Virus record (IMG/VR): IMGVR_UViG_3300001533_000699
Source: a virus
Length of the DNA: 64,000 nt
Strand: one strand, 5' to 3'
This document shows positions 7,252 to 26,947 of this stretch, piece by piece; position 1 is the first letter of the stretch; each line of letters starts with the position of its first letter. The notes under the pieces are model-generated. The model saw only the letters and a list, made by a program, of their open reading frames with translations. It was not told where the DNA came from and did no database searches. The translations under genes and the position numbers were made by a program.

Positions 7252-10200
7252 TTAACGCCTAACAACACCTTTGCCGTAATGCCCACAGTTCATTTTAGAT
7301 ACAATATGTTCTGGTCCAATATAATGGCGACCAACATGCTGTGTTTTACGTCGTTGTCCAGCAAAGCCACCAACAAATTCATGTTGTACTCCTGTCAATG
7401 AATTTTCCATAACATGCGCAACTATATTAGCAATCAATAAAGCTGAGTAACGGTCTTTACGCAATCTGCCTTTTTTATTTCCTGGTAACTTCACCTCTGG
7501 CGTGTCCCATCTATCTCTACCAGCAGCGGTTTGGTCATGAACAATAGTGGCTAACTCATCTTTTAGTTCCTCTATATCCATCACACAGTCTTCAAGTGTA
7601 TCATAATCTCGTCCATGTATTTTATCTAAGGATATAGCTTCACTAATTGTTGCCGGGTCAAACATTGGGAATAAAGTACTTCTACTTTCAAAGTCTTTTC
7701 TCATAAAGTGGTTGGCGTCCCTAGTAAAGTCAGCGTTCGCAAACTGCACCATATGTAAAATGTGTAGTCCAATTTCACCATCAGTTGGCTTATTGGCCTG
7801 TTCCCACCAAAACACATCATTCTCGCCCCTACGAATATATGGCCACAACGCCTTTTCTCCACGACTAGCATCAAACTCATCTGGGTCATGCAAAGCTTCC
7901 ATAATAGCAATACCGCCACCTTGCGTATCTATAGCAATATGCTCTGTTGGAAACACCTTCATAAGGTCACGAATTTTCCTAGCACAATAGGTATAGAAAG
8001 ACTTCTGAGTAGTCTTACCTCCCTGCTTAATTCGTTCACGCAACTTCTGTCTATTGATAGACCAAGCATATACGATGCGACGGTGGTCTGGATGAATCTC
8101 TAAAACAATAATAGCAAAGTTATCTTTTTCAGACGCAGGGTCAATACCATAAACATATCTACAATTAGGATTGCCGCGAATCGTAGCTGAAAATTGCACC
8201 GGTCCACTAGGCAACTCAATTGGTGATTTACACACACAGTTCTCTATAAGACTACGCTTGAAGAACCCATCACTGTCTTTAGCAAATGCAGCACCGTATT
8301 CCATAAGATAAGTCGAGCGGTGAACCGTAGCCTTGGCTTGGTGAATTTGAGTTTCATCCATAAAACCATATGGTAGTTTTTGCCACGGCACACGGAAGAT
8401 ACTAAACTGTTTCCAATCGAAACCCTCGGGTACTTCTCCTTTGAAAATTGCTTCAAGCAAATGATTATCGCCTTTTGACTCTATGATTTGTTTATATCGC
8501 TTCCAATAATCATAGAAGTGATTAAATGAATAGTATGCTGTACCACTAATCACGGTTTGGTTACCAAAGCCAACATCTATATCATCAGCTTCGGTATACA
8601 TTCCTAACGACTTCAATACTTTGATTCGTGCCATATCTTTCGTTCGTTGAGCTGGGCTTGCAGAAACGCTAGAAAAACCCTTGATAACGACTTCGAAGAT
8701 TTCTAGAGGAATGGAATTATGTTGACGATGGCCCTCAGCATAAAAACTATGTGTTATTGGCAAATGATAGTCGTAAAGACGTTTTTTATATGGCAGCAGC
8801 GTAACAGATATTACCTTACGATATTGCGTTCTATTGCGAACGGAGTCCACAAAATCTATCGCTTGTCGCTCTGACTTAAACCTCTTCTGTATGGTTTGGC
8901 CACAATAAACAATGGATACTTTCCATTTTTTACGACTGTTGTCCCAGCAATAGTTTTTTGGCTCGTCTGCTACATAACACTGCTTAATAGTATCAGCAAA
9001 TCTGTTAATCATTAGATATACTGCTGCTGTCCTAGCTTGTTCGCCATTCCAACGAACAAACCACTGCAAATTATCGCTTATTTCAGATGTACGATGATTG
9101 ATATAGCCATCAAAACCAAGTTTATACATCAAGAATTGTACATCTCGACATAGCCTTTCGGATACTGAATAATATGCCAAGCCTATGCGATTGATAATAT
9201 CCCTATCTTGCCACAAAAAACACGAACCGTCAACATCAAACAGACCACTCAAAAAATGTTGAATTACGGATTCTGGTGAACGCAAAATGGCGTGTGGAAT
9301 TTTCTTATCGTGTGCCGTAACATAATCCAAGCCCCATATCTTCATCTGATTCCTTAATGTTTCATCGTCTTTCCATAGCTTATATGCTTTTTTGCAATTC
9401 CAATCTCGCTTATCTACATATTCTGCAACAACCTTAAATTTGAAATTATATTCGTTAACAAGTCGCATACACGTGTCAATATCGGTTGTTGTTACCGATA
9501 TTCGCTTAGTATCAGTAACACAATCTTCACTAATCAAAGTTCCTAATAGCCACGCCTCTTTTTCTTTTAATCCATCGACATAACGAGTTCCAAAACGTGC
9601 GTGTCCACTTGGTGCCTGCTCTACATAATCGTCTTCAGAAAGTTCAAGAGGTTTTTTCCATCCATTATTGGTCATAATCTGATGATTCTCAGAACAACGA
9701 ATTACATAACCATTGGATAGCTTGACTTCATACACATCAGTATAAGGAGTTTTGATGAACTTGTCTGGCGCTTCTTGAGACAGTTTATCATCACCTGTCA
9801 AAACATAATCTACGTGGTCAAAGTCAGATATACGAACAAAACCATCGCTTGTTTCTACTATACTATCTCCTTCTAAACACGCAAACTCATCGGCAATCGT
9901 GTAGTGCGCACGTAATCCACGTATCTTACTGCCATCTCCCATCGGGATAGCGCACACTTCACTATCGCCCACATAGAACATGCATCTATCAATGTCTCTC
10001 TTTGGGCCTTGATGCTTACCATCACCGACCATATTACGAAGTATGGGTGCGCCACGCCATAGTTGCTCCATGTATTCAAACATAAGCTTAGCTTGACGGA
10101 ACGCGGCTCCGACGACAACTATCTTAGACCCTTGATTAAAGATTGCTCGAAGCATAGCGTAGAGAGAAAGAATCCAGGTATTGTGGGAAACAAAGCCATT

Positions 10201-11715
10201 AGAAATGAAGGAGTGGTTATCTGGTATGTGTACATCAAAAGTCTGAGCAACACCACTAGATATTGTCAACACAGGACTAAAAAACCAACCACAATGACAT
10301 AAGTCAAATAATGATTGCCACTCTTCTGTGTCTTGTTGTGTCACACATGAATCCAAGAACGCTGTCAAGAAATCATAAGAGACTAAATTACGATTACCAA
10401 GTGGATTTTTAGAGAACCTACGCTTATTATCAGAATGTGGTTGCAATACATTATATTGTGCGACCCATAAAGACCTTGGCACAATATCTATATTTGTATT
10501 TCTTTTCTTGCGCTTGTATCGTTCAGATTTTCGTTGTAAAGCAAACCCTATCTCATCCATGTATGTGTCTACGTCATGTCCAGTAATTCTCAAAACATGA
10601 TAGTGTCGCTGATATTTTTTGTTCCACTTCTTAGACTTGATACCTACCACGCCAAACTTTAGCAAAAAAGTCTGTAATGTCTTCACTAAAGATTCTGATT
10701 TAGAACAAAATGAAATTCTATCATGCTTATCAAACTCACCGTCTGTATCCATAAGTCCTCGAATAAATGCAGAGACGGCTTCCTTGGACGAACCAAACAC
10801 TACATCTGGGAAGTCCTTATCAGCACATACAGAAGAATTAAAACCGAACTCTGAAAATAGCTTAGTCCATAATTCCGTAGAATGAACACAGTAGTCATAT
10901 TTACCATATTGTACTGGTTTTTTATTACAGTGGGCGTAAGCAAAAGAATACCATAAATCCCGTATGGATTCATCAGCCGATGTTAGTGTTACACTACCTC
11001 GTTTAGTATACTCTCCACCATCTCCAACGAGGCACCCCAAAATATACATGTCGTTGTTTGACAAACCACTATCACCCGAATGCCACTGGGAATGACGACT
11101 AATAACAGCATGGTCTCCCAAACGAACATCAGCTAATTCACACCACTCTATTGCCCCATCTCGTACAATACGAATTTTATGTTCTGGGACACCAGTAAGT
11201 TCAAACCCATCGCGAGTTTTTGTGGTAATAACATCTCCTGTGCCATTATTCCAACAATACTCAACCTCATTATATCCATTCTCGCCCAGACAATGGTCGT
11301 TCACATACTGTCGTTCCTGTTCCGGCGCATCATATCCAACATAATCACCAATTCGCACAAACCTATCGCTAAGCTGAATAATAGAATCTCCAGTAATACA
11401 TTTTCCACCACCACGAGTAGCCAATAACATAGGAAATTTTCGCACCCAAAGCTCTTGAAGCATCACAACCTGAAATGGCAATAGATGTATGTTAAGCAAC
11501 CACTTACATGTATAATAGAAATATTCTGGTTTACTCATAATATCCAGAATATCCATGACTGGATTATTATCAAAATCCTTACTTCTAGATGCATCCAATA
11601 GTATGTTATACATCTCATCTTCATTAAAATCAGCAGGGAAGCCAAGGTATTCATTCTCCACCATATTGTCAATATCTTGCGGAGAATATAATTTAGGTAC
11701 TGTTAGTTTTGACAT
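7252..11715 (-). CDS. terL: Terminase large subunit with two inteins
   Basis: Walker A ATRGGGK/T split by intein 1; IRGLRAHYTIADEFA/S Walker B next to intein 2; nuclease GIDPA and KDRYSA motifs. Confidence 0.92.
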   Translation of the reverse strand: MSKLTVPKLYSPQDIDNMVENEYLGFPADFNEDEMYNILLDASRSKDFDNNPVMDILDIMSKPEYFYYTCKWLLNIHLLPFQVVMLQELWVRKFPMLLATRGGGKCITGDSIIQLSDRFVRIGDYVGYDAPEQERQYVNDHCLGENGYNEVEYCWNNGTGDVITTKTRDGFELTGVPEHKIRIVRDGAIEWCELADVRLGDHAVISRHSQWHSGDSGLSNNDMYILGCLVGDGGEYTKRGSVTLTSADESIRDLWYSFAYAHCNKKPVQYGKYDYCVHSTELWTKLFSEFGFNSSVCADKDFPDVVFGSSKEAVSAFIRGLMDTDGEFDKHDRISFCSKSESLVKTLQTFLLKFGVVGIKSKKWNKKYQRHYHVLRITGHDVDTYMDEIGFALQRKSERYKRKKRNTNIDIVPRSLWVAQYNVLQPHSDNKRRFSKNPLGNRNLVSYDFLTAFLDSCVTQQDTEEWQSLFDLCHCGWFFSPVLTISSGVAQTFDVHIPDNHSFISNGFVSHNTWILSLYAMLRAIFNQGSKIVVVGAAFRQAKLMFEYMEQLWRGAPILRNMVGDGKHQGPKRDIDRCMFYVGDSEVCAIPMGDGSKIRGLRAHYTIADEFACLEGDSIVETSDGFVRISDFDHVDYVLTGDDKLSQEAPDKFIKTPYTDVYEVKLSNGYVIRCSENHQIMTNNGWKKPLELSEDDYVEQAPSGHARFGTRYVDGLKEKEAWLLGTLISEDCVTDTKRISVTTTDIDTCMRLVNEYNFKFKVVAEYVDKRDWNCKKAYKLWKDDETLRNQMKIWGLDYVTAHDKKIPHAILRSPESVIQHFLSGLFDVDGSCFLWQDRDIINRIGLAYYSVSERLCRDVQFLMYKLGFDGYINHRTSEISDNLQWFVRWNGEQARTAAVYLMINRFADTIKQCYVADEPKNYCWDNSRKKWKVSIVYCGQTIQKRFKSERQAIDFVDSVRNRTQYRKVISVTLLPYKKRLYDYHLPITHSFYAEGHRQHNSIPLEIFEVVIKGFSSVSASPAQRTKDMARIKVLKSLGMYTEADDIDVGFGNQTVISGTAYYSFNHFYDYWKRYKQIIESKGDNHLLEAIFKGEVPEGFDWKQFSIFRVPWQKLPYGFMDETQIHQAKATVHRSTYLMEYGAAFAKDSDGFFKRSLIENCVCKSPIELPSGPVQFSATIRGNPNCRYVYGIDPASEKDNFAIIVLEIHPDHRRIVYAWSINRQKLRERIKQGGKTTQKSFYTYCARKIRDLMKVFPTEHIAIDTQGGGIAIMEALHDPDEFDASRGEKALWPYIRRGENDVFWWEQANKPTDGEIGLHILHMVQFANADFTRDANHFMRKDFESRSTLFPMFDPATISEAISLDKIHGRDYDTLEDCVMDIEELKDELATIVHDQTAAGRDRWDTPEVKLPGNKKGRLRKDRYSALLIANIVAHVMENSLTGVQHEFVGGFAGQRRKTQHVGRHYIGPEHIVSKMNCGHYGKGVVRR
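8716..9879 (-). mobile_element. Intein 2 (388 aa) with LAGLIDADG-type endonuclease, after Walker B
   Basis: Starts CLEGDS, ends GHRQHN followed by Ser; motifs LLGTLISED (degenerate) and FLSGLFDVDG. Confidence 0.9.
10180..11400 (-). mobile_element. Intein 1 (407 aa) with LAGLIDADG endonuclease, in Walker A
   Basis: Starts CITGDS, ends NGFVSHN followed by Thr; motifs LGCLVGDG and FIRGLMDTDG. Confidence 0.92.
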
Positions 11716-13432: not shown

Positions 13433-14224
13433 TTATATTTCTCCTTCTGGGCATAAAAATGGTTTATCAACTTCTCCATCTTCGTATGTATGGTATTCTT
13501 GCCAATCCTTAGCTGTTCTTTCTGCTGCTATTTTCACCTTTTCAGCTATACGTCCTTCCTCTATTCTACGACGATGTTGGTCTAAGTCTTTGATTAACTC
13601 AAAGATATTACGGCGACTTTCCTCAATTTGCTTAAAGCGCTGGTCACGAGAACCTTTTAGGTCTCTAAGTTTGGCATCTTTACGTTGTTGATAATCTAGG
13701 TGTTGTTTTGCTAGGGCACTCTTAGCGGCATACAGACTGTTTATTTGAGTACGTAAGTCGGCAATTTTCATTTGGTCTCTGTTATCAACTGAGAATCGTT
13801 CCTCTTTGCTAATATCTTCTTGTAGTGATTTAATACGCCGAGCAACGTTTGCTTGCTCCCCTATTGCTCTTTGCGCAAATATATCAAGCATAATCAGGTC
13901 TTTAATCATCAGCTCATCTGTTGGTAAGATGTCGGTAGACGCACTAAATTGACCAGTGTATGATGTCCACGCCTGTTCAAAGTAATCAATCTCCATATCT
14001 AATAGACCTTTGCGTACTTCGCTCCAAAATGCACTATCATGCAACCCTTCAATAAAATCAGTCCTACCAGCCTTGTAGCCGGTGACTTCTTCTAGGTGTT
14101 TTCGTACGGCGTCTTCGGTACGATTTAGATGCTCAGCAAGTTTAGGTATTGGTAGGTCTCGATGCGCAGATAAATATCTGCGGTCATCTTTACTCATTGG
14201 CCCACGCTTCAAGCTCTTTGCCAT
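13433..14224 (-). CDS. HTH/coiled-coil protein, possible terminase small subunit
   Basis: N-terminal HTH-like segment (LAEHLNRTEDAVRKH) plus coiled coil, upstream of terL; function inferred from position. Confidence 0.45.
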   Translation of the reverse strand: MAKSLKRGPMSKDDRRYLSAHRDLPIPKLAEHLNRTEDAVRKHLEEVTGYKAGRTDFIEGLHDSAFWSEVRKGLLDMEIDYFEQAWTSYTGQFSASTDILPTDELMIKDLIMLDIFAQRAIGEQANVARRIKSLQEDISKEERFSVDNRDQMKIADLRTQINSLYAAKSALAKQHLDYQQRKDAKLRDLKGSRDQRFKQIEESRRNIFELIKDLDQHRRRIEEGRIAEKVKIAAERTAKDWQEYHTYEDGEVDKPFLCPEGEI

Positions 14225-14825
14225 TAGTTAATTCTCCAAGTATGTCTCGTAACGCCTCAACTAAAGCATCTTTCCTGGTTTTCTTTAGTGGGGCACCTTC
14301 AATTAATCTCATGTAGTCAGCTCTTAAATGCACAGGTATATGCGCCGAAATGTATTCTATCAACTCTTTGTTTGATGCGCGCACCACAGTGTCGTCATAT
14401 TTAAATTGCAAGCTATGTTCTAGTTCACTGGTATCACCAGATTCTACTAGGCTGCGTTTTGCTTTGTTTCGACTAACCCACTTGGCCCACTTTTTACATT
14501 CAGCTTTATCTGACCATTTCAAGCAGTGGTCATCTTTGCGATGTGCACAAGATAAGCAGGGAGGTGTGTGCCTGTGCATTTTATCGCGCCGTAGATTAAG
14601 AAAACGATTTCTTATGTGAAGGCGCAAAAATGTTTCTATGGAACACCCTTTGTCATTATCTGGGTCAAAGTTGTATAGTGCCTGTGAGGCAAAAATTAGC
14701 CCTTCTTGTCGCATGTCGTCTGCGTCGTAATAACCAAAAGCAAAAGAATCAACTAAAGAGTCTAATACCTTGTTGATTATACATAAGACTTCATGTTCAT
14801 TATAGTTTGGGGGTATGAACATCAT
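14190..14825 (-). CDS. Sigma70-family (region 2) factor with Cys-rich insert
   Basis: DADDMRQEG..F..QAL..FDP and F...HIRNRFLNLRRD region-2 signature; CxxC...C...C insert. Confidence 0.75.
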   Translation of the reverse strand: MMFIPPNYNEHEVLCIINKVLDSLVDSFAFGYYDADDMRQEGLIFASQALYNFDPDNDKGCSIETFLRLHIRNRFLNLRRDKMHRHTPPCLSCAHRKDDHCLKWSDKAECKKWAKWVSRNKAKRSLVESGDTSELEHSLQFKYDDTVVRASNKELIEYISAHIPVHLRADYMRLIEGAPLKKTRKDALVEALRDILGELTNGKELEAWANE

Positions 14826-15047
14826 TAGGCGTCTCACTTATTTTTGACTTCTCTATAGCTGCCGCGCCAGCCGAACTAGGCGGGTCGCCCCTCTCTAGTT
14901 CATCTTCGACTTCCTGGTTGACTTTTGTGTCACCAATCGCGTATAATAAAGAAGGAAGTAGTGGAATTTTCATATTACAGTCCTTTCTATGTGAATGCGT
15001 ATCTGATATAGTATAACCAAAACCACAGTAGTTTGTCAAGGTAAAAA

Positions 15048-15260
15048 ATGCATAATAAAAAACAATGGAATAAAATAGAGGAACAGTTTGTGAAAGATAA
15101 TGCTACGAAATTGACCGATGCGGAAGGAGCAATGCAGCTCAGCCGTATTATCGGTGAATACATAAGTACCCGTAGTTGGAGACGTAAAAGGAACGAGTTG
15201 GGCATCAAAAAACAGAGAGGTAAGGGCTTGTCAAAATTGGGAATGCCCGCTTCTGGTTAG
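15048..15260 (+). CDS. Small HTH/SANT-like protein
   Basis: W...EEQFVKDN...LTD...A..L...RKR..LGIKK pattern. Confidence 0.6.
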   Translation: MHNKKQWNKIEEQFVKDNATKLTDAEGAMQLSRIIGEYISTRSWRRKRNELGIKKQRGKGLSKLGMPASG

Positions 15261-15657: not shown

Positions 15658-15797
15658 TGTTGCAATACGCTACAATTGTATCGTTTCGATGCATCGTTTC
15701 GATACACACGTGGAATACCATACTAATGGGGGGTTTGACGTAAGTGCTTGCGCTGCAAGGATTTACGATTTTAGGCCGGTTTGGCACACAACTTGCA
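15658..15797 (+). promoter_or_regulatory. Sigma54 promoter with upstream activator-like and IHF-like sites (copy 1)
   Basis: TGGCAC-ACAAC-TTGCA at 15782-15797; CGTAAGTGCTTG..CAAGGATTTACG at 15739-15767; three 17-bp TGY-N11-RCA boxes at 15658-15706. Confidence 0.8.
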
Positions 15798-16459: not shown

Positions 16460-17340
16460 GGGGGTTATTTTATACCTAATTGCTATATCAAATATAGTGA
16501 TTATCAGCATGACCCTATATCAATATACGTAGTCAGCGAATAGGGCTAGCGACCCCCAAAATAGTGGAAAAAGAGCCGACTTGTCGGCGCGTAACACCCC
16601 ACGCAGTGGGGTCAATATAGGTAGTCAGTAAAGACCCAAAAGGGTGGGTAAAAATGCGGCAATGCACGCCCCCAAAAGAAGGGCCACCGACGCGGTCACA
16701 ACCCCCTCAGAAGTAGTACCGCCTCCGGTGTAACACCCCACGTAGTGGGGTCAATATGGAGTAGCCAGCAACCCTCGTTAGTGGGGGCTCTAATAGGAAA
16801 AGGTAACACCCCAATCAGGGGGTCGGGCCAACAGCTACATTCTCTATGGCTTTTATGCACATTACCCCCTTACAGATATAGACGCGCCCCCCGTTCGTAG
16901 GGTAACAGCCGAGCCACTCGGCTCGGTCCAATGGGGGGTAGCCAGCACCACTCAGGGGGTACTCATTTTAGGTGGTAAGAAAAAATCAAATAAGGGGGCA
17001 CCGGCGCGGCAGTGCGTACCACCCAAAGGAGGGGCGTCGTGGCGAAATGCCATTGCTGATATGCATTATACCACTTGTGCACATTACCCCTCTACAGGCA
17101 TGGCCGGTACCACCACCCCCTCTATAGATATAGCTGCACCACCTTCTGATAGGGGTCCGACCGGGGGGTAACGCCCGACCCGGTCGGGTCGTCCTAATGG
17201 GGGGTAGCCAGCGGCTCTCTGGTAGGGTGTAAGGAAAAAGCAAAAGAGGGGGTTCTAATGGGGGGTATCACCCCATCCAATGTCGTCGAAATGCCATTGC
17301 TGATATGCATTATACGATTTATGGCTATTGCATACTTATG
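16460..17340. repeat. Non-coding mosaic of short hairpin modules (block 1)
   Basis: GTAACACCCCACGNAGTGGGGTCAATAT at 16591 and 16730; CGAAATGCCATTGCTGATATGCATTAT at 17043 and 17287; 16855-16995 resembles 17078-17247. Confidence 0.8.
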
Positions 17341-17383: not shown

Positions 17384-17521
17384 TGTTGCAAAATGCTACG
17401 ATTGTATCATTATGCTGCATCGAAACAATACACACCGATTCTCCCACCAATGGGGGGCTTGACGTAAGTGCTTACACTGTAAGGATTTACGATTTTAGGC
17501 CGGTTTGGCACAATAGTTGCA
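17384..17521 (+). promoter_or_regulatory. Sigma54 promoter with activator-like and IHF-like sites (copy 2)
   Basis: TGGCAC-AATAG-TTGCA at 17506-17521; diverged direct repeat of 15658-15797. Confidence 0.8.
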
Positions 17522-19585: not shown

Positions 19586-19601
19586 TGCAAATCTTGTGCC
19601 A
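19586..19601 (-). promoter_or_regulatory. Sigma54 -24/-12 site, leftward
   Basis: Reverse complement TGGCAC-AAGAT-TTGCA. Confidence 0.75.
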
Positions 19602-19649
19602 AAGCGTATCGAGACACCACACTAATGGGGGTTTGAAAAAAACATTAGG

Positions 19650-19796
19650 GGGGTTGTGGTTCTAAAATAGTGTGTTATACTATAGACAGTAAGGGGGGAA
19701 TAACAAACAACGAAAACGAAAGTGAGGAAAACCAAAAAGGGGGTTGCAAAACCAAAAACATGTGATAGAATAAGTTTAAGTGAGACACACACACCA
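19650..19796 (+). promoter_or_regulatory. Tandem sigma70-type promoter cassette (repeat of 20725-20878)
   Basis: TTGTGG-N16-TATACT then TTGCAA-N16-TAGAAT; ~115 bp nearly identical to 20751-20878. Confidence 0.8.
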
Positions 19797-19809
19797 CGAG
19801 GAATCAGAA

Positions 19810-20061
19810 ATGGTAACGTATCATTATGTACATCTACGTCAAGATGACGATTCAGAAACACGTTACATAGTCGAGGTCGAGCACACCCCCGCATTGGGTG
19901 GTATCGACCTGACAATTCAGGCATGTCAAGCCATAGCGTCTGTTAGGCTAGATGAAAACGGCGTAGAGGTATTCGACTACCTACACGAAGACATGCTTCT
20001 GGACACCCAACCGGGGGGTGAGGACGAAGAACGAATCCTGGTTGCGTGCGGATTGAGGTAG
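19810..20061 (+). CDS. Acidic hypothetical protein
   Basis: GAGGA SD, ATG 19810. Confidence 0.65.
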   Translation: MVTYHYVHLRQDDDSETRYIVEVEHTPALGGIDLTIQACQAIASVRLDENGVEVFDYLHEDMLLDTQPGGEDEERILVACGLR

Positions 20062-20153
20062 TAGTCACAGTGGGGGGAGGTATGCGACCCAAACACCGGG
20101 GGTGCTCCCCCCTATTTTGAGGAAAACTGAAACACACACTAAGGAGATGGATT

Positions 20154-20492
20154 ATGTCATGTTTGGCATGCGGCAGTAGACTGTTTGAACACAACGAAAA
20201 CATCGTGTGCGAGGGGTGTGGAGAATCCCTCGACAGGGGGGAGATGGAAAAGCCGATAGTGAACATGCCAATTCTGGCATATCATATACACGAACTAGCA
20301 ACAGCCAGGGGGGAATTCACCCTCCACCCCTGCGAGGGGGTATCGGTGGTGGTAAACGTAATTCCCTCCACCTGGGAGGGGGTCTGGGACACTATGTATC
20401 TAAACGGCAAAAATTGCGGAAATAGAGCGGGTGCCATCGGGGCATTCGTTAAAATGGTTGGCGAAGCCAACCCACAGGTATCATGGAAATAA
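20154..20492 (+). CDS. Zn-ribbon hypothetical protein
   Basis: AAGGAG SD; CxxC...CxxC. Confidence 0.7.
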   Translation: MSCLACGSRLFEHNENIVCEGCGESLDRGEMEKPIVNMPILAYHIHELATARGEFTLHPCEGVSVVVNVIPSTWEGVWDTMYLNGKNCGNRAGAIGAFVKMVGEANPQVSWK

Positions 20493-20691
20493 GTGGTGTG
20501 TGACACCCCCCGGTCAAGGTACGCTCTTGGCCGGGGGGTAACCCCCCATCCAGCCCCCTCTGGGGAGGGGTGGGGTATCGGCATAAAAGCCATAAAATCT
20601 ATAGGGTTTCATCTAAACCAACACCGTCAAAATCCATAGGTGATATGCACTATGGCAATTAAAAGCGTAGTAACTCTATCGGTGATAACAG

Positions 20692-20707
20692 AGCAAATAT
20701 CATGCCA
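20692..20707 (-). promoter_or_regulatory. Sigma54 -24/-12 site, leftward
   Basis: Reverse complement TGGCAT-GATAT-TTGCT. Confidence 0.7.
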
Positions 20708-20893
20708 AAATAAAATAAAATTAGGGGGTTGCAATTCTCAAAACCTATGCTATACTATAGACAGTGAGGGGGAAACAACAACAACAACAACAACGAAAAC
20801 GAAAGTGAGGAAAACCAAAAGGGGGGTTGCAAAACCAAAAACATGTGATAGAATAAGTTTAAGTGAGACACACACACCAACACGGAGTCAAAC

Positions 20894-21637
20894 ATGTTTT
20901 CGCCAAAAAATGCTAAAACAAAAGCGTTACGTCAAGTGTTCGGCAACAAAAGAGTCTACTCTTTGGACCTGCCTGCTGGACATACGTGCCCTGGGGCAAA
21001 AGACTGCAAGAGTCAGGCAGTTGTCAACGCCGATGGAAAATGCAAGATTGTCGATGGACCGGATTGCATCTTCAGATGCTTCGCAGCGTCTCAAGAGGCA
21101 CTATACCCCCAAACGTGGGCAAAGCGACAACGAAACCTAAAGCTGGTCAAGGGGTGCAGTACCCCCCAACAGGTGTGCGAATTGTTGTGTAACCACCTTC
21201 CAGACAATGCGGGAATAATCCGATTGCATGTATCCGGTGATTTCTACAGTAAAACCTACCTTCGGGGAGCCATGATGGCAGCACAACGTACCCCCAACAT
21301 CAGGTGGTACGCATACACGAAGAGTCTCCACCTGTTTAGTGGAGTGCCGATGCAAGACCCCCAAAACGGGGTGGTATTCAACAATTTCATTCTGACAGCC
21401 AGTGTGGGTGGTAAGCACGACCACCTGATTGAAAACCTCGGATTACGTACCGCTGAAGTGGTATTTAGCGAAGAAGAGGCAAAACAGAAGGGGTTGGAAA
21501 TAGACCATACGGACGAACACGCCGCACAACCAGGGGGGTCCTTCGCCCTGCTGATTCATGGTACCCAACCGGCGGGGTCCGAAGCTGGCAAGGCATGGTA
21601 TAAAATCCGCAAAGCCAAAGGGGGTTATAGTCGATAG
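20894..21637 (+). CDS. GP88-like Fe-S/radical-SAM-like protein
   Basis: LPAGHTCPGA..C, C.F.CFA, RLHVSGDFYS and YAYTK motifs. Confidence 0.7.
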   Translation: MFSPKNAKTKALRQVFGNKRVYSLDLPAGHTCPGAKDCKSQAVVNADGKCKIVDGPDCIFRCFAASQEALYPQTWAKRQRNLKLVKGCSTPQQVCELLCNHLPDNAGIIRLHVSGDFYSKTYLRGAMMAAQRTPNIRWYAYTKSLHLFSGVPMQDPQNGVVFNNFILTASVGGKHDHLIENLGLRTAEVVFSEEEAKQKGLEIDHTDEHAAQPGGSFALLIHGTQPAGSEAGKAWYKIRKAKGGYSR

Positions 21638-21775
21638 TGTGTGTGTCCCCCCCCACCAGGGTTCCCTCCCCTGGTGGGGGTTGGGGGAAAACCAAAAGAG
21701 GGGTTGTAAACAGAAAACATTGTGCTACAATACAAGAGTCAAGTATTCACCACCATCTTTCAGGGAGTTTGAACC

Positions 21776-22252
21776 ATGCGTGTTTTCACCCGTTCAGAGT
21801 TTGCCGAATTCGTTGCCAATATCAAGGGTTCGGTCATTATGTCGTTGACCATCAAGACCGATGCCCCTACGAAGAGGGGTGCCCCGGCCATCTTCAAAAT
21901 CAAGCATTGCCCTGCTGGGTTGGGTTGGAACTATGCCAAGCGGAAAGCCGCTGCTGAAGGGGTGCCAGTCGAACAGCTCGCCCCCTCCAATGGGTCATGG
22001 CACACCCTCGTGCAAGGGGCGCTGCGTCGGCATCGTGACGATGCGTCTCGACTGTATGTCGAATACTACCCCTCCGATAAGGGTGCGAAGACCCAGTACG
22101 AGATGGATGGTCGAACCTACTCGTATAATGAGGTTGCCGAGCACCTCAAAGCCCCCCGCAAGGGTGGTGACAACAACACGGGCTATCGTATGGCCAAGCT
22201 TGAAAACGTTGTTGGGGGTGTTCTGAACAAAGAGCCATTCGTGGTGGTATGA
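21776..22252 (+). CDS. Hypothetical protein
   Basis: GGAG SD; own promoter at 21704. Confidence 0.7.
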   Translation: MRVFTRSEFAEFVANIKGSVIMSLTIKTDAPTKRGAPAIFKIKHCPAGLGWNYAKRKAAAEGVPVEQLAPSNGSWHTLVQGALRRHRDDASRLYVEYYPSDKGAKTQYEMDGRTYSYNEVAEHLKAPRKGGDNNTGYRMAKLENVVGGVLNKEPFVVV

Positions 22253-22394
22253 TGGACCCTAGTAAGAGGGGTGTCCGGTAACAACGGGCACCCCTCTGAC
22301 GGGGATTTAACAAAAACCACAATAGGGGTTGCATTACACAAAAAACGTTGTACAATAAGAGTAGTTCATCACCACTTACTTAAGGAGTACAAGT

Positions 22395-22604
22395 ATGTAC
22401 GCAAGCATCAATTTCCGAACTAAGAAAGCTTTCCGTGAGGCTGTCAAGGCCGGTAAAGAAGTCTCCGTGTCGCAACCCGGCCCGTTTGGCGGCAACGAAC
22501 CGAGCAACGGAAGAGTGGCGGTTGAGGGGCCATGGTATCCCGAACCGCACAGGTGGTATGCCACTGCTACCCTCAAAGATGGGGTGGTGGTAAAGGTAGC
22601 ATGA
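22395..22604 (+). CDS. Hypothetical protein
   Basis: AAGGAG SD; own promoter at 22329. Confidence 0.75.
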   Translation: MYASINFRTKKAFREAVKAGKEVSVSQPGPFGGNEPSNGRVAVEGPWYPEPHRWYATATLKDGVVVKVA

Positions 22605-22881
22605 GGTGGTGACACACCCCCCGGCCAGAGTACCTCCCTGGCCGGGGGGTCACACCCCATCCGACCCCCTCGCGTGGGGGTATGCGCTGAACAGCCACAA
22701 AACCTATGGCAGATAAGCAGGGAAGCCTGTCCTGCTAATTTCTATAGGAATTCTAGCTTTTGAATAGCCACAACCCCCATGGTAATTCCAGCCCATCCTA
22801 CCATTTGACTCCCACATTTAGGGGTTAGTTAGTACTATGTTGGGGGGGGTAAAGATGTAGTAATTCTATTGGTTATTGTTG

Positions 22882-22897
22882 AGCAAATATTATGCCA
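22882..22897 (-). promoter_or_regulatory. Sigma54 -24/-12 site, leftward
   Basis: Reverse complement TGGCAT-AATAT-TTGCT. Confidence 0.7.
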
Positions 22898-23035
22898 AAG
22901 AATAATAAAATAAAGGGGTTGTAATTCTCAAAACTTGTGGTATGATATAGGTAGTGAAGGGGAAAGGGCAACAACGAAGAAAACCAAAAGAGGGGTTGTA
23001 ATTCTCAAGACTTGTGATAGAATACAGTTACCGAT

Positions 23036-23173
23036 GTGGGGGCCTTGGTGGGGCCAAGACGCCTAATGAAGAAGCGTCTTTGAGTACATAACAGAAACTG
23101 ACCGTGCTGTAATGTGCTGTGGTCATTGCTGGTCACAATGGCTTGCTAGGGGTTTGATTCCCCTCCCCCCTCC
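23036..23173 (+). ncRNA. tRNA-like structured RNA (T-arm and acceptor, enlarged interior)
   Basis: Starts just after the promoter at 22996-23023; 5' GGGGG pairs with 3' CCCCC; AGGGG-TTTGATT-CCCCT T-arm; internal hairpins. Confidence 0.45.
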
Positions 23174-23367
23174 TTTTACTGTACTGTGTTTATCAAAAGA
23201 GGGGTTGTAAAGTCAGAAAACCGTAGTACAATACAAGAGGGAGTAAGTTACAATGCAATGCCCGGTCTGCCAACACGAGATGAAATCCATCTGCAACCCC
23301 GTAACGGGAGTGTGGTATTGGGCTTGCGATGCGTGTCAAAGTTACATCAATAAAACGGAGAAATAAA

Positions 23368-23574
23368 ATGCGTAAGCGAGAAGTCACGTGCGTAGTGTGC
23401 AAGGAAACCGTCAGCCGACGTAAGTCGCTTGCTGTAGAGTTCGAACAGCGTGCGTGTCGAAAGCACCCAGGAACATCTGCTGCGTCAGCAGAGTTCGATA
23501 TTAAGCGGCGTGCCGCTCTCGATGCCGATAGAGACAGTAAGAAGCTGGAGTCTTCGACCCGCTCTCTTAAGTAA
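23368..23574 (+). CDS. Zn-finger hypothetical protein
   Basis: GGAG SD; CVVC...CRKH. Confidence 0.6.
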   Translation: MRKREVTCVVCKETVSRRKSLAVEFEQRACRKHPGTSAASAEFDIKRRAALDADRDSKKLESSTRSLK

Positions 23575-23939
23575 GGGGTTCGGCCCATATTTGGGGTTGC
23601 ATTACAACAAACATGTGATAAAATACAGTTAATGAAGCAAGAGATTTGGTTACAACAGCTAGTGTTCAAGTCAATATTACAGGGGGAAAGTGACAAACGC
23701 AAAACCTGTGGTATACTTAGGTTAGTCCAACATCACACACACAAGGGAGAAAAATGTTCAAGTACAATGCAAAACCCAACGGTTTGGAAGTGTCCATCCA
23801 TACACAAAGCATGGGCAAGCACTTTGAAATGAAGTCTGATGGGTCCATGAAAAAATAAAAATGAGGGGTTGCAAACGGCAAAAGTTATGATAGAATACTT
23901 GTAGTGAAGTGGATACGACACAACGCAAAGGAACACACA

Positions 23940-24182
23940 ATGTTACACATTCGACTGGTTGGTTTTTATGACGCCTCGGCCCTATTCGAGGGGTTCAGCG
24001 ACCTGTGGCAACAATTCATCGAAAGCGACCCCTCATTTTCGTGGGGGTCCAACAATCACTCACTTATAACAGTACGCGACGTTCTAAACCACATGGACAA
24101 TGTAGGAATTGAGTATGACAAAGCATTTGTAGACAAATGTGGTCTGATTGACGAACACTTCTACGTTGACCTAGAGAACTAA
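23940..24182 (+). CDS. Acidic hypothetical protein (paralog of 24687-24926)
   Basis: Shares F.WG.NNH.L and YVDLEN* with the paralog. Confidence 0.75.
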   Translation: MLHIRLVGFYDASALFEGFSDLWQQFIESDPSFSWGSNNHSLITVRDVLNHMDNVGIEYDKAFVDKCGLIDEHFYVDLEN

Positions 24183-24335
24183 GAGGGGGGGGGTAACGGG
24201 CTAACCCCCCGAGTGGGGGAGGTCTTTTCTTGAGTCATTAGCCAGTATTTCTATGGCAGATATGCATTTTATGGCAATGTACCACCCGAATAGGTGGGGT
24301 TGGCCCACCCATTTGAGGTGTCAGTAGACAGTACC

Positions 24336-24542
24336 TTACCAGTTTTCCAGCTCGTATTCTCGAAACACGTAATGCCGCAATTCTGGGGGGTTGCCAGCAC
24401 CCCCGTCCGACACTAACACATCCACTAGCGGTTGCCCGTTTTCATCAAAACGGTTCTTTTCCACGATGCCGGATTGCTGCGTAAGACGCACGGCGACTCG
24501 CTGGTTCACTCGAAATCGGAAATCAGGTGTTGTTGCTTTCAT
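24336..24542 (-). CDS. Small SH3-like hypothetical protein, inverted, with its own promoter
   Basis: F.VNQRV......GIV...V.V......F.E.EL pattern; minus-strand TTGCGT-N16-TACAAT just upstream. Confidence 0.5.
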   Translation of the reverse strand: MKATTPDFRFRVNQRVAVRLTQQSGIVEKNRFDENGQPLVDVLVSDGGAGNPPELRHYVFREYELENW

Positions 24543-24686
24543 ACGTGTATTGTAGCATAGATTATTGGAAACGCAACCCCCTCTTTTGGTAAGATAAGAA
24601 AAGTAAATGGAAGGGATTGCACTTGTCAAAAACTGTGATAGAATACGGGCATGGAACAAAACACCACACTCAACGGACACAAGACC

Positions 24687-24926
24687 ATGTCGAACATTTC
24701 AGTATGTAAATGTGAGTTTGTCAAATCTTCCGAACTGTTTGATGGTTATGAAGACCTCATGGAAGAATGGAGCACAGTATCACAATTCAACTGGGGGGAA
24801 AATAACCACCACACCTTGGTACTGTTCGCGTCCATTTTAGATGAAATGGAGTATTACGGCGTGGAGTTTTCGCATCAGTTTTCTTCGCGGGTGCCGTTTA
24901 ATATGTATGTTGACCTCGAAAACTAG
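24687..24926 (+). CDS. Acidic hypothetical protein (paralog of 23940-24182)
   Basis: Shares motifs with 23940-24182. Confidence 0.75.
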   Translation: MSNISVCKCEFVKSSELFDGYEDLMEEWSTVSQFNWGENNHHTLVLFASILDEMEYYGVEFSHQFSSRVPFNMYVDLEN

Positions 24927-25001
24927 GGGGTTGACTTCCACAAATCATGTGCTATAATGCAATTACTTAACAACCACCAACCACTTTCTTGAGGAAACGA
25001 A

Positions 25002-25304
25002 ATGAAGAGTATCGCAACGTATCGTGTCAATGACGTAATTAGTCTACAATACGGCAACCGTGTCAACGAACGCATATGTAGAGTGTTGAAGGTGCGAAAT
25101 CTCAACAAAGAACCCCTGTCTATCAAGACGCTGATTCGTCACCCCAACACCATACGCAGCAACGTACTGGTCACCTATAAGGACACAGAAGGCAAAATCC
25201 GTTCGTTTTATACGGGTGTCGAAAAGTCGGCACGTAAGGTCAACCCTTTGCGGGTAGCAATCCTATGTCTTCGCGGCAAGCTTCCCTGCCGTGTGTGGAG
25301 GTAA
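25002..25304 (+). CDS. Basic hypothetical protein
   Basis: GAGGA SD; promoter at 24931. Confidence 0.65.
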   Translation: MKSIATYRVNDVISLQYGNRVNERICRVLKVRNLNKEPLSIKTLIRHPNTIRSNVLVTYKDTEGKIRSFYTGVEKSARKVNPLRVAILCLRGKLPCRVWR

Positions 25305-25305
25305 A

Positions 25306-25542
25306 ATGAAGTACGAAGTTATGCACGGTGGCAGCACTGCATTTGTGCAAGCCGGTAACCCGTATGCGGCATGCTTAGAAATGCTGTACACAGAAGCAGA
25401 CGAAAACGATATCGAGTTCGCACCATTCGAGGTTACACCCCTCCCATATGGAGAGTCTGAGACAATCCCAATGGCGCTTGTGGTGGCGATACAAAACCAA
25501 GCATTGAACGGCGACCCCGACCACTTTTTAGAAAGGCAATAG
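25306..25542 (+). CDS. Hypothetical protein
   Basis: GGAGGT SD. Confidence 0.6.
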   Translation: MKYEVMHGGSTAFVQAGNPYAACLEMLYTEADENDIEFAPFEVTPLPYGESETIPMALVVAIQNQALNGDPDHFLERQ

Positions 25543-25789
25543 TATGCATCTACTCGCAATCGGTTCCACAATCAACCACAATGGCGTACCCATGAAGGTA
25601 GAGTCTGTGGTCACAATCAAACACCAGCCAATGGTGCAGGTACGCACCTCTCACAATACGACCATGTTGTTGTCGCATAAGCAGGTCGAAAAATCCCTGA
25701 ATAGGGGTTGACAACACCGAAAGGTGTGATACAATGTTTTTGTGTAACACTTACTCTTTTGGAGAGGCGCTTGTAGAAATACTGCGTCA

Positions 25790-26233
25790 ATGAAAATGTA
25801 TCGATGTGAACAGTGTGGGGTGCAGGTCGGACGCAAGGTATCGGCTATGAGGACAGTAGTCGAAACTCGCGAAAAGACGTATACAAAAACGCACGAGCTA
25901 GAAAACGGAGAGCAATACGAGCAGTACGACGGGGATGGAACCGAAATTGTGCGAGAAGTCAAGCTCTGTCACAAGTGTTATGGCGTCGAGGTGCCCGAAG
26001 CACCAAAACCTGAATACCATACACCGGCAGAACCATTGCCAACAGGAAAGTACTCACTGAAACTCGGCAGCGGCCATGAAGTTACCACAGACAACCCCTC
26101 GGAACTGTGGTGGTTCTACGAAAGCGATGGTGCGAGCATTCTACCCGCAAAACGTAAGAAAGGCGGCAAGTCCAAGGGTGCCCGTACCAAAGGCCGCAAG
26201 AACGTCAAGAAAACTTCAGAAGAACGGAGTTGA
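25790..26233 (+). CDS. Zn-ribbon protein with basic tail
   Basis: CEQC...G.EIVREVKLCHKC; Lys/Arg-rich C-terminus. Confidence 0.65.
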   Translation: MKMYRCEQCGVQVGRKVSAMRTVVETREKTYTKTHELENGEQYEQYDGDGTEIVREVKLCHKCYGVEVPEAPKPEYHTPAEPLPTGKYSLKLGSGHEVTTDNPSELWWFYESDGASILPAKRKKGGKSKGARTKGRKNVKKTSEERS

Positions 26234-26327
26234 CTTTTGCGAAAGTTGTGATACACTAGAAGTAATGAGGCAAGAGTGTAACGTGCCTCTGAGGGTCACC
26301 CGTCCCAAGAATAGCAAACGGGCATAT

Positions 26328-26401
26328 AGGGGAGTGGAGCAGTTGGTCAGCTCACAAGTTTCATAAGCTTGAGGTCGCAGGTTCAAATCCTGCCTTCCCC
26401 A
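26328..26401 (+). tRNA. tRNA-Met(CAT)
   Basis: Cloverleaf with CAAGT-TTCATAA-GCTTG; A1:C72 mismatch is initiator-like but the three G:C anticodon-stem pairs are absent. Confidence 0.85.
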
Positions 26402-26669
26402 CTGTCTAGACCGTCTTTCATGGTTTCCAATCATCAAGACGTAAAAACTGATGTATGGGGTAGACTTTGGTTTCTCAATTCCTTTCAACCTCAGAAACGG
26501 AAGTGATGTAGACCTTGGTTGTCGGTAACTTTCAACATAGAAATCGGAACCGTCTGGTTGGCGTGCCAATAAAACGCTGGGTGGCGGATAAAGTGATTTG
26601 TGCCTTGAAGGTTCCATGGGTCACCATACCATGAGTTCCGCCCGAATTTTATTAGTCAATCTTACGAGT

Positions 26670-26705
26670 GCCCGTAAGTCGATGCGTCGGCTTGCGGGTT
26701 TTTTT
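26670..26705 (+). terminator. Intrinsic terminator
   Basis: GCCCGTAAGTCGA-TGCG-TCGGCTTGCGGGT plus T run. Confidence 0.8.
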
Positions 26706-26815
26706 GTTGTTCCACCGTAACCCCCCACATCGGGTGAGATGGACGTAGCCAGTAAATATACCACCCAAACGGGGGTTGTGAAAAAACACATAGACGCTAG
26801 CTGTTATATCATAAC

Positions 26816-26831
26816 TGCAAATACCATACCA
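26816..26831 (-). promoter_or_regulatory. Sigma54-like -24/-12 site, leftward
   Basis: Reverse complement TGGTAT-GGTAT-TTGCA. Confidence 0.55.
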
Positions 26832-26947
26832 ACAAAATGAGAAAATAAGTGGTTGCAATAAGCAAAAGGTGTGGTATGATGTGTGTAGGTAAGAAACACT
26901 AACACAAACAAATGCCCTGTTGACATTTACAAAAGGTGTGGTAAGAT

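Follow-up and report, generated by a model that had tools for sequence, protein, structure and literature searches.

Classical sigma54 promoters depend on an enhancer, as at glnAp2 with NtrC, nifH with NifA, and Pu with XylR and IHF. Class I activators of sigma70 promoters, such as CRP, occupy sites at -61.5, -71.5 and further upstream, and at the lambda promoters PR and PRM the distance between the two start sites is 82 bp. Back-to-back polymerases at PR/PRM interfere with one another in a distance-dependent manner (Strainic 2000, as cited in PMC1920246). Unactivated holoenzyme of sigma54 (RpoN) is also known to repress sigma70 promoters (PMC4591121), in one study from what were called 'repressive promoters' (PMC8743547), and sigma factor antagonism has been reported at algD of Pseudomonas aeruginosa (Boucher 2000, as cited in PMC2725144). 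Here, we describe sigma54-type -24/-12 sites in the IMG/VR virus record IMGVR_UViG_3300001533_000699, of which a stretch of 64,000 nucleotides, hereafter the window, was analysed. The sites lie upstream of sigma70-type promoters in a presumed early region, at distances of whole helical turns, and sequence comparison points to a real and widespread feature of uncultured phages.

In the arrangement proposed here, what this locus shares with RpoN-mediated repression is an unactivated sigma54 holoenzyme near a sigma70 promoter, free of any enhancer. The described repressive sites overlap the sigma70 promoter and double as real promoters of the same genes, whereas the phage sites mostly face away, lie off the core promoter, keep whole-turn spacing, form arrays and are viral; they end 21-64 bp upstream of the -35 and share only UP-element DNA with the promoter. 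Lambda PR/PRM offers back-to-back polymerases at an about equal start-to-start distance (about 81 bp is predicted between the sigma54 and sigma70 starts in the window), but both of its polymerases are sigma70 and productive, while here one partner would be a silent sigma54 complex, and at many cassettes. Class I activator sites likewise take helically quantised positions upstream of a sigma70 -35, in either orientation, yet the phage motif is the promoter sequence of a sigma factor. With classical sigma54 promoters and that of phage YuA, the locus has in common the sequence and spacing of -24 and -12, together with IHF-like half-sites upstream of two rightward sites (15782 and 17506); unlike classical promoters, the leftward sites of the window have no free enhancer region and no convincing downstream gene, and no convincing phage activator was found, 64 of 158 kb of this genome being covered. 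YuA, for its part, carries one sigma54-like promoter but neither an array nor a sequence that matches the strict motif exactly. Repression by sigma54, interference at divergent promoters and a single phage sigma54-like promoter (YuA) are thus already known, and the present analysis adds the quantised spacing, the orientation bias and the opposite-face packing of phage sigma54-type sites. No arrays were found in eight named phage records (among them T5, YuA, phiCbK, PA5oct and DSS3P8), and a literature search that left most subscription journals outside its reach found no paper on phage sigma54-site arrays or on helically phased divergent sigma54/sigma70 promoters.

Sites and paired promoters in the window

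The first-pass annotation had reported four minus-strand sites, each set a short way behind a rightward promoter, and all four are borne out at their positions, in numbers well above chance. The sites, the DNA between them and their promoters, and two further rightward sites are as follows.

19586-19601, minus strand: sigma54-type -24/-12 site; gap of 52 bp (5 turns) to the -35 at 19654
20692-20707, minus strand: sigma54-type site; gap of 21 bp (2 turns) to the -35 at 20729
22882-22897, minus strand: sigma54-type site, duplicate of the 20692 module; gap of 21 bp to the -35 at 22919
26816-26831, minus strand: sigma54-type site, degenerate (TGGTAT); gap of 21 bp to the -35 at 26853
20708-20728, no strand: A-rich spacer over the UP-element positions of the rightward promoter
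22898-22918, no strand: A-rich spacer over UP-element positions
26832-26852, no strand: A-rich spacer over UP-element positions
19654-19681, plus strand: sigma70-type promoter TTGTGG-N16-TATACT, first of a pair (second at 19744)
20729-20756, plus strand: sigma70-type promoter TTGCAA-N16-TATACT, extended -10, first of a pair (second at 20827)
22919-22946, plus strand: sigma70-type promoter TTGTAA-N16-TATGAT, first of a pair (second at 22996)
26853-26880, plus strand: sigma70-type promoter TTGCAA-N16-TATGAT, first of a pair (second at 26920)
15781-15797, plus strand: rightward sigma54-type site with upstream IHF-like half-sites
17505-17521, plus strand: second copy of the rightward sigma54 module, with IHF-like half-sites upstream

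Four sites in the window depart from TGGCACG-N4-TTGCW at no more than one position, where dinucleotide shuffles give 0.27; the four lie between 15.8 and 20.7 kb, and two are rightward (15782, 17506). Sites with two mismatches number four against 2.8 expected, and the total of sigma54-type sites in the window is six. The GG and GC of TGGCAY-N5-TTGC stand exactly 10 bp apart, and positions that the searches left free also match the sigma54 consensus, with R following TGGCAY in 91% of viral against 58% of bacterial matches and W following TTGC in 79% of viral sites. The rightward sites at 15781 and 17505 look like real sigma54 promoters and form a different, more promoter-like class; a module similar to that at 15781-15797 is found in L656, the closest relative.

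The gaps of 21 bp at 20692, 22882 and 26816 and of 52 bp at 19586 were confirmed, and each site aims back into the end of the previous cassette, as had been noted. The sites at 20692 and 22882, however, lie within one duplicated 140-nt module (76% identity) and therefore count as one event, which leaves two independent cases of 21 bp and one of 52 bp; the module at 26816 is more distant from the other two (gap 52-57% identical, flanks 17-42%). Two independent cases are too few to call the distance fixed, and it was therefore tested in other viruses. Other parts of the earlier description stand for the window but within limits: A-rich DNA does precede the -35 boxes, but nearly all early promoters between 19 and 24.6 kb have it, with a sigma54 site or without, and all four promoters are the first of a tandem pair (the second lying 90, 98, 77 and 67 bp downstream), although this is specific to the genome, the shares in relatives being 4/45 against 15/234.

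Spacing, orientation and packing across viruses

IMG/VR was searched with a pattern consisting of a reverse sigma54 motif, then TTGAC, then a -10 box, which gave at least 120 matches for gaps of 5-35 bp and at least 120 for gaps of 36-66 bp, dereplicated before the gaps were analysed. Among the matches listed, divergent gaps peak at 20-22, 31-33 (mode 32), 41-43 (mode 42) and 52-55 bp, with troughs between. Once viral contigs are dereplicated, gaps take quantised values of about 21, 32, 42, 53 and 64 bp, all whole helical turns, with 32 and 42 the most frequent. Rayleigh tests at 10.5 bp among the matches listed gave p=5e-5 for gaps of 5-35 (n=73) and p=3e-4 for gaps of 36-66 (n=82), values that are drawn from samples of matches and treat families as independent though they are related; the phase test was therefore redone on a set in which each DNA-similarity cluster contributed a single site (n=70, median p=0.0014). 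Phasing holds outside the largest such cluster (p=8e-5) and is also found outside the clade of this phage. A control in which the motif core was longer by 1 bp returned 40 matches from 22 families, unphased (p=0.13), against at least 120. Gaps in an independent metagenome set, chosen for paired motifs only by a pattern with no promoter term, fell at 29-32, 42-43, 51-54 and 61-64 bp (n=16, p about 0.001).

The 21 and 52 bp of the window are accordingly two members of a whole-turn series. The first-pass annotation had proposed a distance fixed at 21 bp and looked to its conservation in relatives; spacing in other viruses is indeed far from random, but relatives follow whole turns, with 32 and 42 commoner than 21, and the fixed-21 pattern with the promoter style of this phage recurs in only one other viral family. 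In 596 Gb of bacterial genomes there were only 89 matches, most of them isolated sites, and their phasing was weak (p=0.012); they include a few real cases (Brevibacillus, 42 bp) and three that look like mis-binned phage contigs. In the Brevibacillus loci L415, L418, L432, L460, L468, L479 and L487, the reverse sigma54 motif lies 42 bp upstream of a consensus housekeeping promoter. The bacterial genomes G099 and G068, from the phylum of locus L430, hold 33 and 17 matches to the sigma54 motif, far above their relatives, and several of these are in near-identical contexts.

Orientation was examined in 27 island stretches, which include the window and some of which hold matches that first led to them. 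The site nearest a promoter is divergent in 57 cases and tandem in 10, and about 85% of sites face away from the promoter; the same-direction sites that exist too show gap peaks near 17 and 27 bp. On whether the sigma54 and sigma70 polymerases share a helix face or sit on opposite ones, a simple count of grooves gives contrary answers for the two orientations. Upstream of promoters generally, A-tracts occupy two UP-element positions, but tracts at -5 to -9 and -16 to -19 from the -35 are about twofold commoner where a site lies 29-34 bp upstream, and such promoters have a third tract one turn further out, at -26 to -29. At such promoters the site therefore caps a phased array of A-tracts, which could be used by both polymerases. 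A shared array of this kind would offer a simple origin for the phasing, without giving the sign of any effect.

The sites are also ordered among themselves. In the complete relatives a single island of 3-20 kb, situated within the first early cassettes, contains nearly all sites, and some phages have 10-13 within a few kb. Head-to-head pairs are 18-21 bp apart from start to start in 59 of 67 cases, with an inner gap whose mode is 4 bp; back-to-back pairs stand 21-24 and 30-33 bp apart, and neighbours in the same direction 26-27 or 35-38 bp apart. The last of these spacings equals n+0.5 turns and so puts such neighbours on opposite helix faces, the arrangement expected of bulky proteins that are packed closely but do not clash. 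Head-to-head pairs only 3-6 bp apart would seem unable to serve as ordinary promoters both at once. In relatives such as L085, L162, L163, L285 and L304, an IHF-like box (CAA-N4-TTA) recurs downstream of the sigma54 motif, 28-29, 41-44 and 97-98 bp from the motif start and thus on the side of the expected transcript.

Possible readers and effects of the sites

Among 26 motif-bearing phage records, none encodes a sigma54 DNA-binding domain, and no convincing gene of the activator (enhancer-binding protein) family was found, there being only three weak, partial AAA-type matches; an enhancer-binding protein of the host may still act. After the four leftward sites of the window there is no leftward open reading frame with a convincing ribosome-binding site (two candidates are antisense to a called rightward gene) and no Rfam RNA, though an antisense RNA without annotation may lie there. 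One phage protein deserves attention as a possible reader.

15048-15260, plus strand: 70-aa three-helix helix-turn-helix (HTH) protein P0001, bordering the motif island; weakly similar to GcrA and the RpoN domain of sigma54

The best PDB match to the P0001 family profile is the RpoN domain of Aquifex sigma54, at a weak E=0.069, and Sigma54_DBD is matched by one of 74 family members (E=0.009). The fold is a generic three-helix HTH, for which GcrA (Z 6.8) and small terminase (6.3) score above the sigma54 RpoN domain (4.8-5.0). The RpoN box (ARRTVAKYR) is not conserved in the family, only its basic RKxR part and LGI being kept while the RRT positions vary, and no clear family member was found in the complete multi-site phages G029 (10 sites), G004, G016 and G035. 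These three observations together make host sigma54 the likelier reader. The P0001 gene adjoins the motif island here and in related complete genomes, which is probably synteny. The family itself comprises conserved viral HTH proteins of about 65-100 aa with a C-terminal GRG motif and 118 relatives at 50% clustering; 301 genomes from the phylum to which locus L430 belongs yielded no member. Its gene is divergent from that of a sigma-like protein, and L656 appears to have two paralogs (10001-10201 and 11065-11283).

The reading that we tentatively favour, though it falls somewhat short of probable, is that unactivated host sigma54 holoenzyme parked at the putative sites damps early sigma70 promoters through shared A-tracts. 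The sites would be activator-free docking sites for host sigma54 RNA polymerase, at which the holoenzyme would form a closed complex, stable but silent and directed away from the gene. This complex would lie where a series of A-tracts in phase with the sigma70 -35, comprising the UP element plus one to three more tracts, reaches its distal end. The sigma54 and sigma70 polymerases would then stand back-to-back on shared curved DNA and, with whole-turn spacing kept, their alpha C-terminal domains and surfaces would meet in one fixed geometry. The most likely effect would be a damping of the earliest cassette promoters that depends on the face of the helix, by competition for A-tracts at 21-32 bp and by polymerase-polymerase interference further out, and it would tie early expression to the level of host sigma54. 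What the sequences show directly is the motif with its clustering, orientation bias, phasing and A-tract layout, and no detectable phage gene for sigma54 or an activator; sigma54 as the reader, the closed complex, and any transcriptional effect with its sign are what we infer.

This reading modifies the earlier proposal of a repeated switch in which sigma54 holoenzyme either occludes the UP element or fires antisense RNA. The link between site and promoter is non-random, and competition for the UP element is plausible because the 21-bp gap covers the UP-element positions, but steric occlusion is hard to argue at 42-64 bp and the antisense half has become the weaker one. Several points count against damping. 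Repression by itself does not require tight phasing, and a phase that is kept as far out as 53-64 bp would be more usual for activators or for co-occupancy; a -35 of the TTGCA type, in a post hoc comparison, is present in 12 of 62 site-bearing promoters against 11 of 262 others and leans to activation, while the overall share of TTGAC does not differ between site-bearing and other promoters (p=0.28). Many sites sit in arrays with no promoter nearby and fit a decoy better, and the benefit of damping early genes for a lytic phage is not explained.

A decoy function is the first rival to be weighed. The sites could soak up host sigma54 holoenzyme, especially after genome replication, and so mute the host sigma54 regulon, with phasing merely letting the parked polymerases coexist with one another and with sigma70 polymerase. 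The regular same-direction, head-to-head and back-to-back spacings and the 10-13 sites per few kb of some phages speak for it, but the window has only six sites, the handful on each incoming genome would probably be a small sink, and the 85% bias in orientation relative to promoters would be unneeded, so that we regard it as unlikely, albeit a serious contender. Rather less likely still is a positive role, in which sigma54 bound at these phased positions, alone or within the holoenzyme, would work like a class I activator or anti-silencer of the sigma70 promoter. Relative to the start, the sites are centred at about -63 and -74, positions from which CRP and other class I activators work, the phasing persists to 53-64 bp, and the advantage for the phage is easy to see; the non-consensus -35 boxes of all four window promoters and the enrichment of TTGCA in relatives would also suit it, although the site-free early promoters of the window have equally weak -35 boxes and the TTGCA effect is post hoc. 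We found no description of sigma54 activating sigma70 polymerase.

The leftward sites might instead be true sigma54 promoters fired by a host enhancer-binding protein, with antisense RNA, or collision with transcription from the preceding cassette, shutting down the early genes. They carry full -24/-12 consensus motifs and are directed at the end of the preceding cassette. The two rightward modules (15782 and 17506) resemble genuine sigma54 promoters, and a transcription start has been mapped for the sigma54-like promoter of phage YuA (bioRxiv 10.1101/2023.10.13.562163). This possibility is nonetheless distinctly improbable. The lack of sigma54 and convincing enhancer-binding-protein genes in the 26 phages argues against productive antisense promoters, as do the head-to-head pairs 3-6 bp apart, which would start inside each other; moreover, the DNA at the enhancer position is taken up by the sigma70 promoter, the IHF-like boxes of relatives are often on the downstream side of the site, and no leftward gene has a convincing ribosome-binding site. 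Lower again we place a phage-encoded reader, in which P0001, as an RpoN-like domain on its own, would bind the -24 half and control the promoters. Its best profile match, the motif island right beside its gene in related complete genomes, and the finding that the RpoN domain by itself is able to bind -24 sites and to block transcription (PMC5626770) are in its favour, but multi-site phages lack a clear family member, the residues matching the RpoN box vary, other folds score higher, and a 70-aa domain leaves the exactly spaced -12 half unexplained. It is very improbable that the sites mark or protect a physical end of the genome, such as the packaging start or the first-entering DNA, with the promoter link secondary: they do cluster in one stretch beside the terminase/sigma block in the relatives examined, but phasing to the -35 and orientation bias would go unexplained.

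Genome context and significance

The window, 64 of 158 kb of the phage genome, is part of a 158,199-nt contig from an uncultured, giant tailed phage, and contains terminase-like, portal, rIIA-like, RNA ligase and Ro60-like genes, 16 tRNAs and one tmRNA. Its source runs are freshwater or sediment metagenomes; no RNA run is listed among the sequencing runs that contain it, which has no bearing on expression, and no cultured phage match was found for P0011, the sigma-like protein, the portal or an island fragment. Near 15 kb starts a leftward block with sigma-like protein, terminase and portal, to the right of which small rightward cassettes, each with a sigma70-type promoter of 16-bp spacer, occupy a repeat-rich, G+C-richer stretch that we take to be the early region.

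14190-14837, minus strand: phage sigma-like protein, near the head of the leftward terminase/portal block; only Sigma70_r2 detected

The terminase-like gene (7252-11715) encodes 1487 aa, and its homologs in L656 and L659 contain an intein and LAGLIDADG domains. Promoters fall into two classes by spacer: 29 of 43 strong matches have 16 bp, mostly with an extended -10, this class lying between 19084 and 62024, and promoters with 18-bp spacers lie around the sigma/terminase block, at 11709, 14918, 15039 and 32603; the divergent 18-bp pair at 14918/15039 is kept in L656. The 18-bp promoters may belong to late genes and be recognised by the phage sigma-like protein, with P0001 perhaps acting as its partner. 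Many early promoters of the related phages L507-L512 have GCCGATA, GACGATA or TCAAG between -35 and -10, possibly the site of a further regulator; these elements are absent from the promoters of the window.

Between 15759 and 20850, contig depth rises from about 6 to about 13 in two DNA runs, one of them possibly the source sample, a weak hint of a genome end or packaging start there. In both runs, a low-depth contig joins window position 20653 to 19402, both within similar repeat modules, and this junction possibly reflects a strain variant or modules that have recombined, unless it is an artefact. Leftward of the sigma54 sites, non-coding DNA is filled by a repeated motif around GCTGATATGCA and by hairpins around ACCACCCAAAGGAGGGG, at 17045, 17289, 18842, 19004, 19397, 20629 and 24252, which may be sites for another protein.

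Silent sigma54 sites are numerous in bacteria, and what they are for has yet to be settled (PMC4591121). The phages described here seem to have selected sites of this silent type, at high density, in strict helical register with sigma70 promoters and in many lineages, and Brevibacillus provides a culturable bacterial case of the same geometry. A fragment of 60-100 bp would thus be a compact model of the effect that a parked sigma54 polymerase has on a neighbouring promoter. It comes close to an even call, in our view, that phages widely use parked, unactivated host sigma54 polymerase as an architectural transcription factor, setting early output up or down by the state of the host with no phage-encoded regulator. 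If true, this would be a viral use of sigma54 that we have not found described in the literature; it would provide a sequence marker for the early region of phages with sigma54-bearing hosts and, for the virus, a new way to read the physiology of its host.

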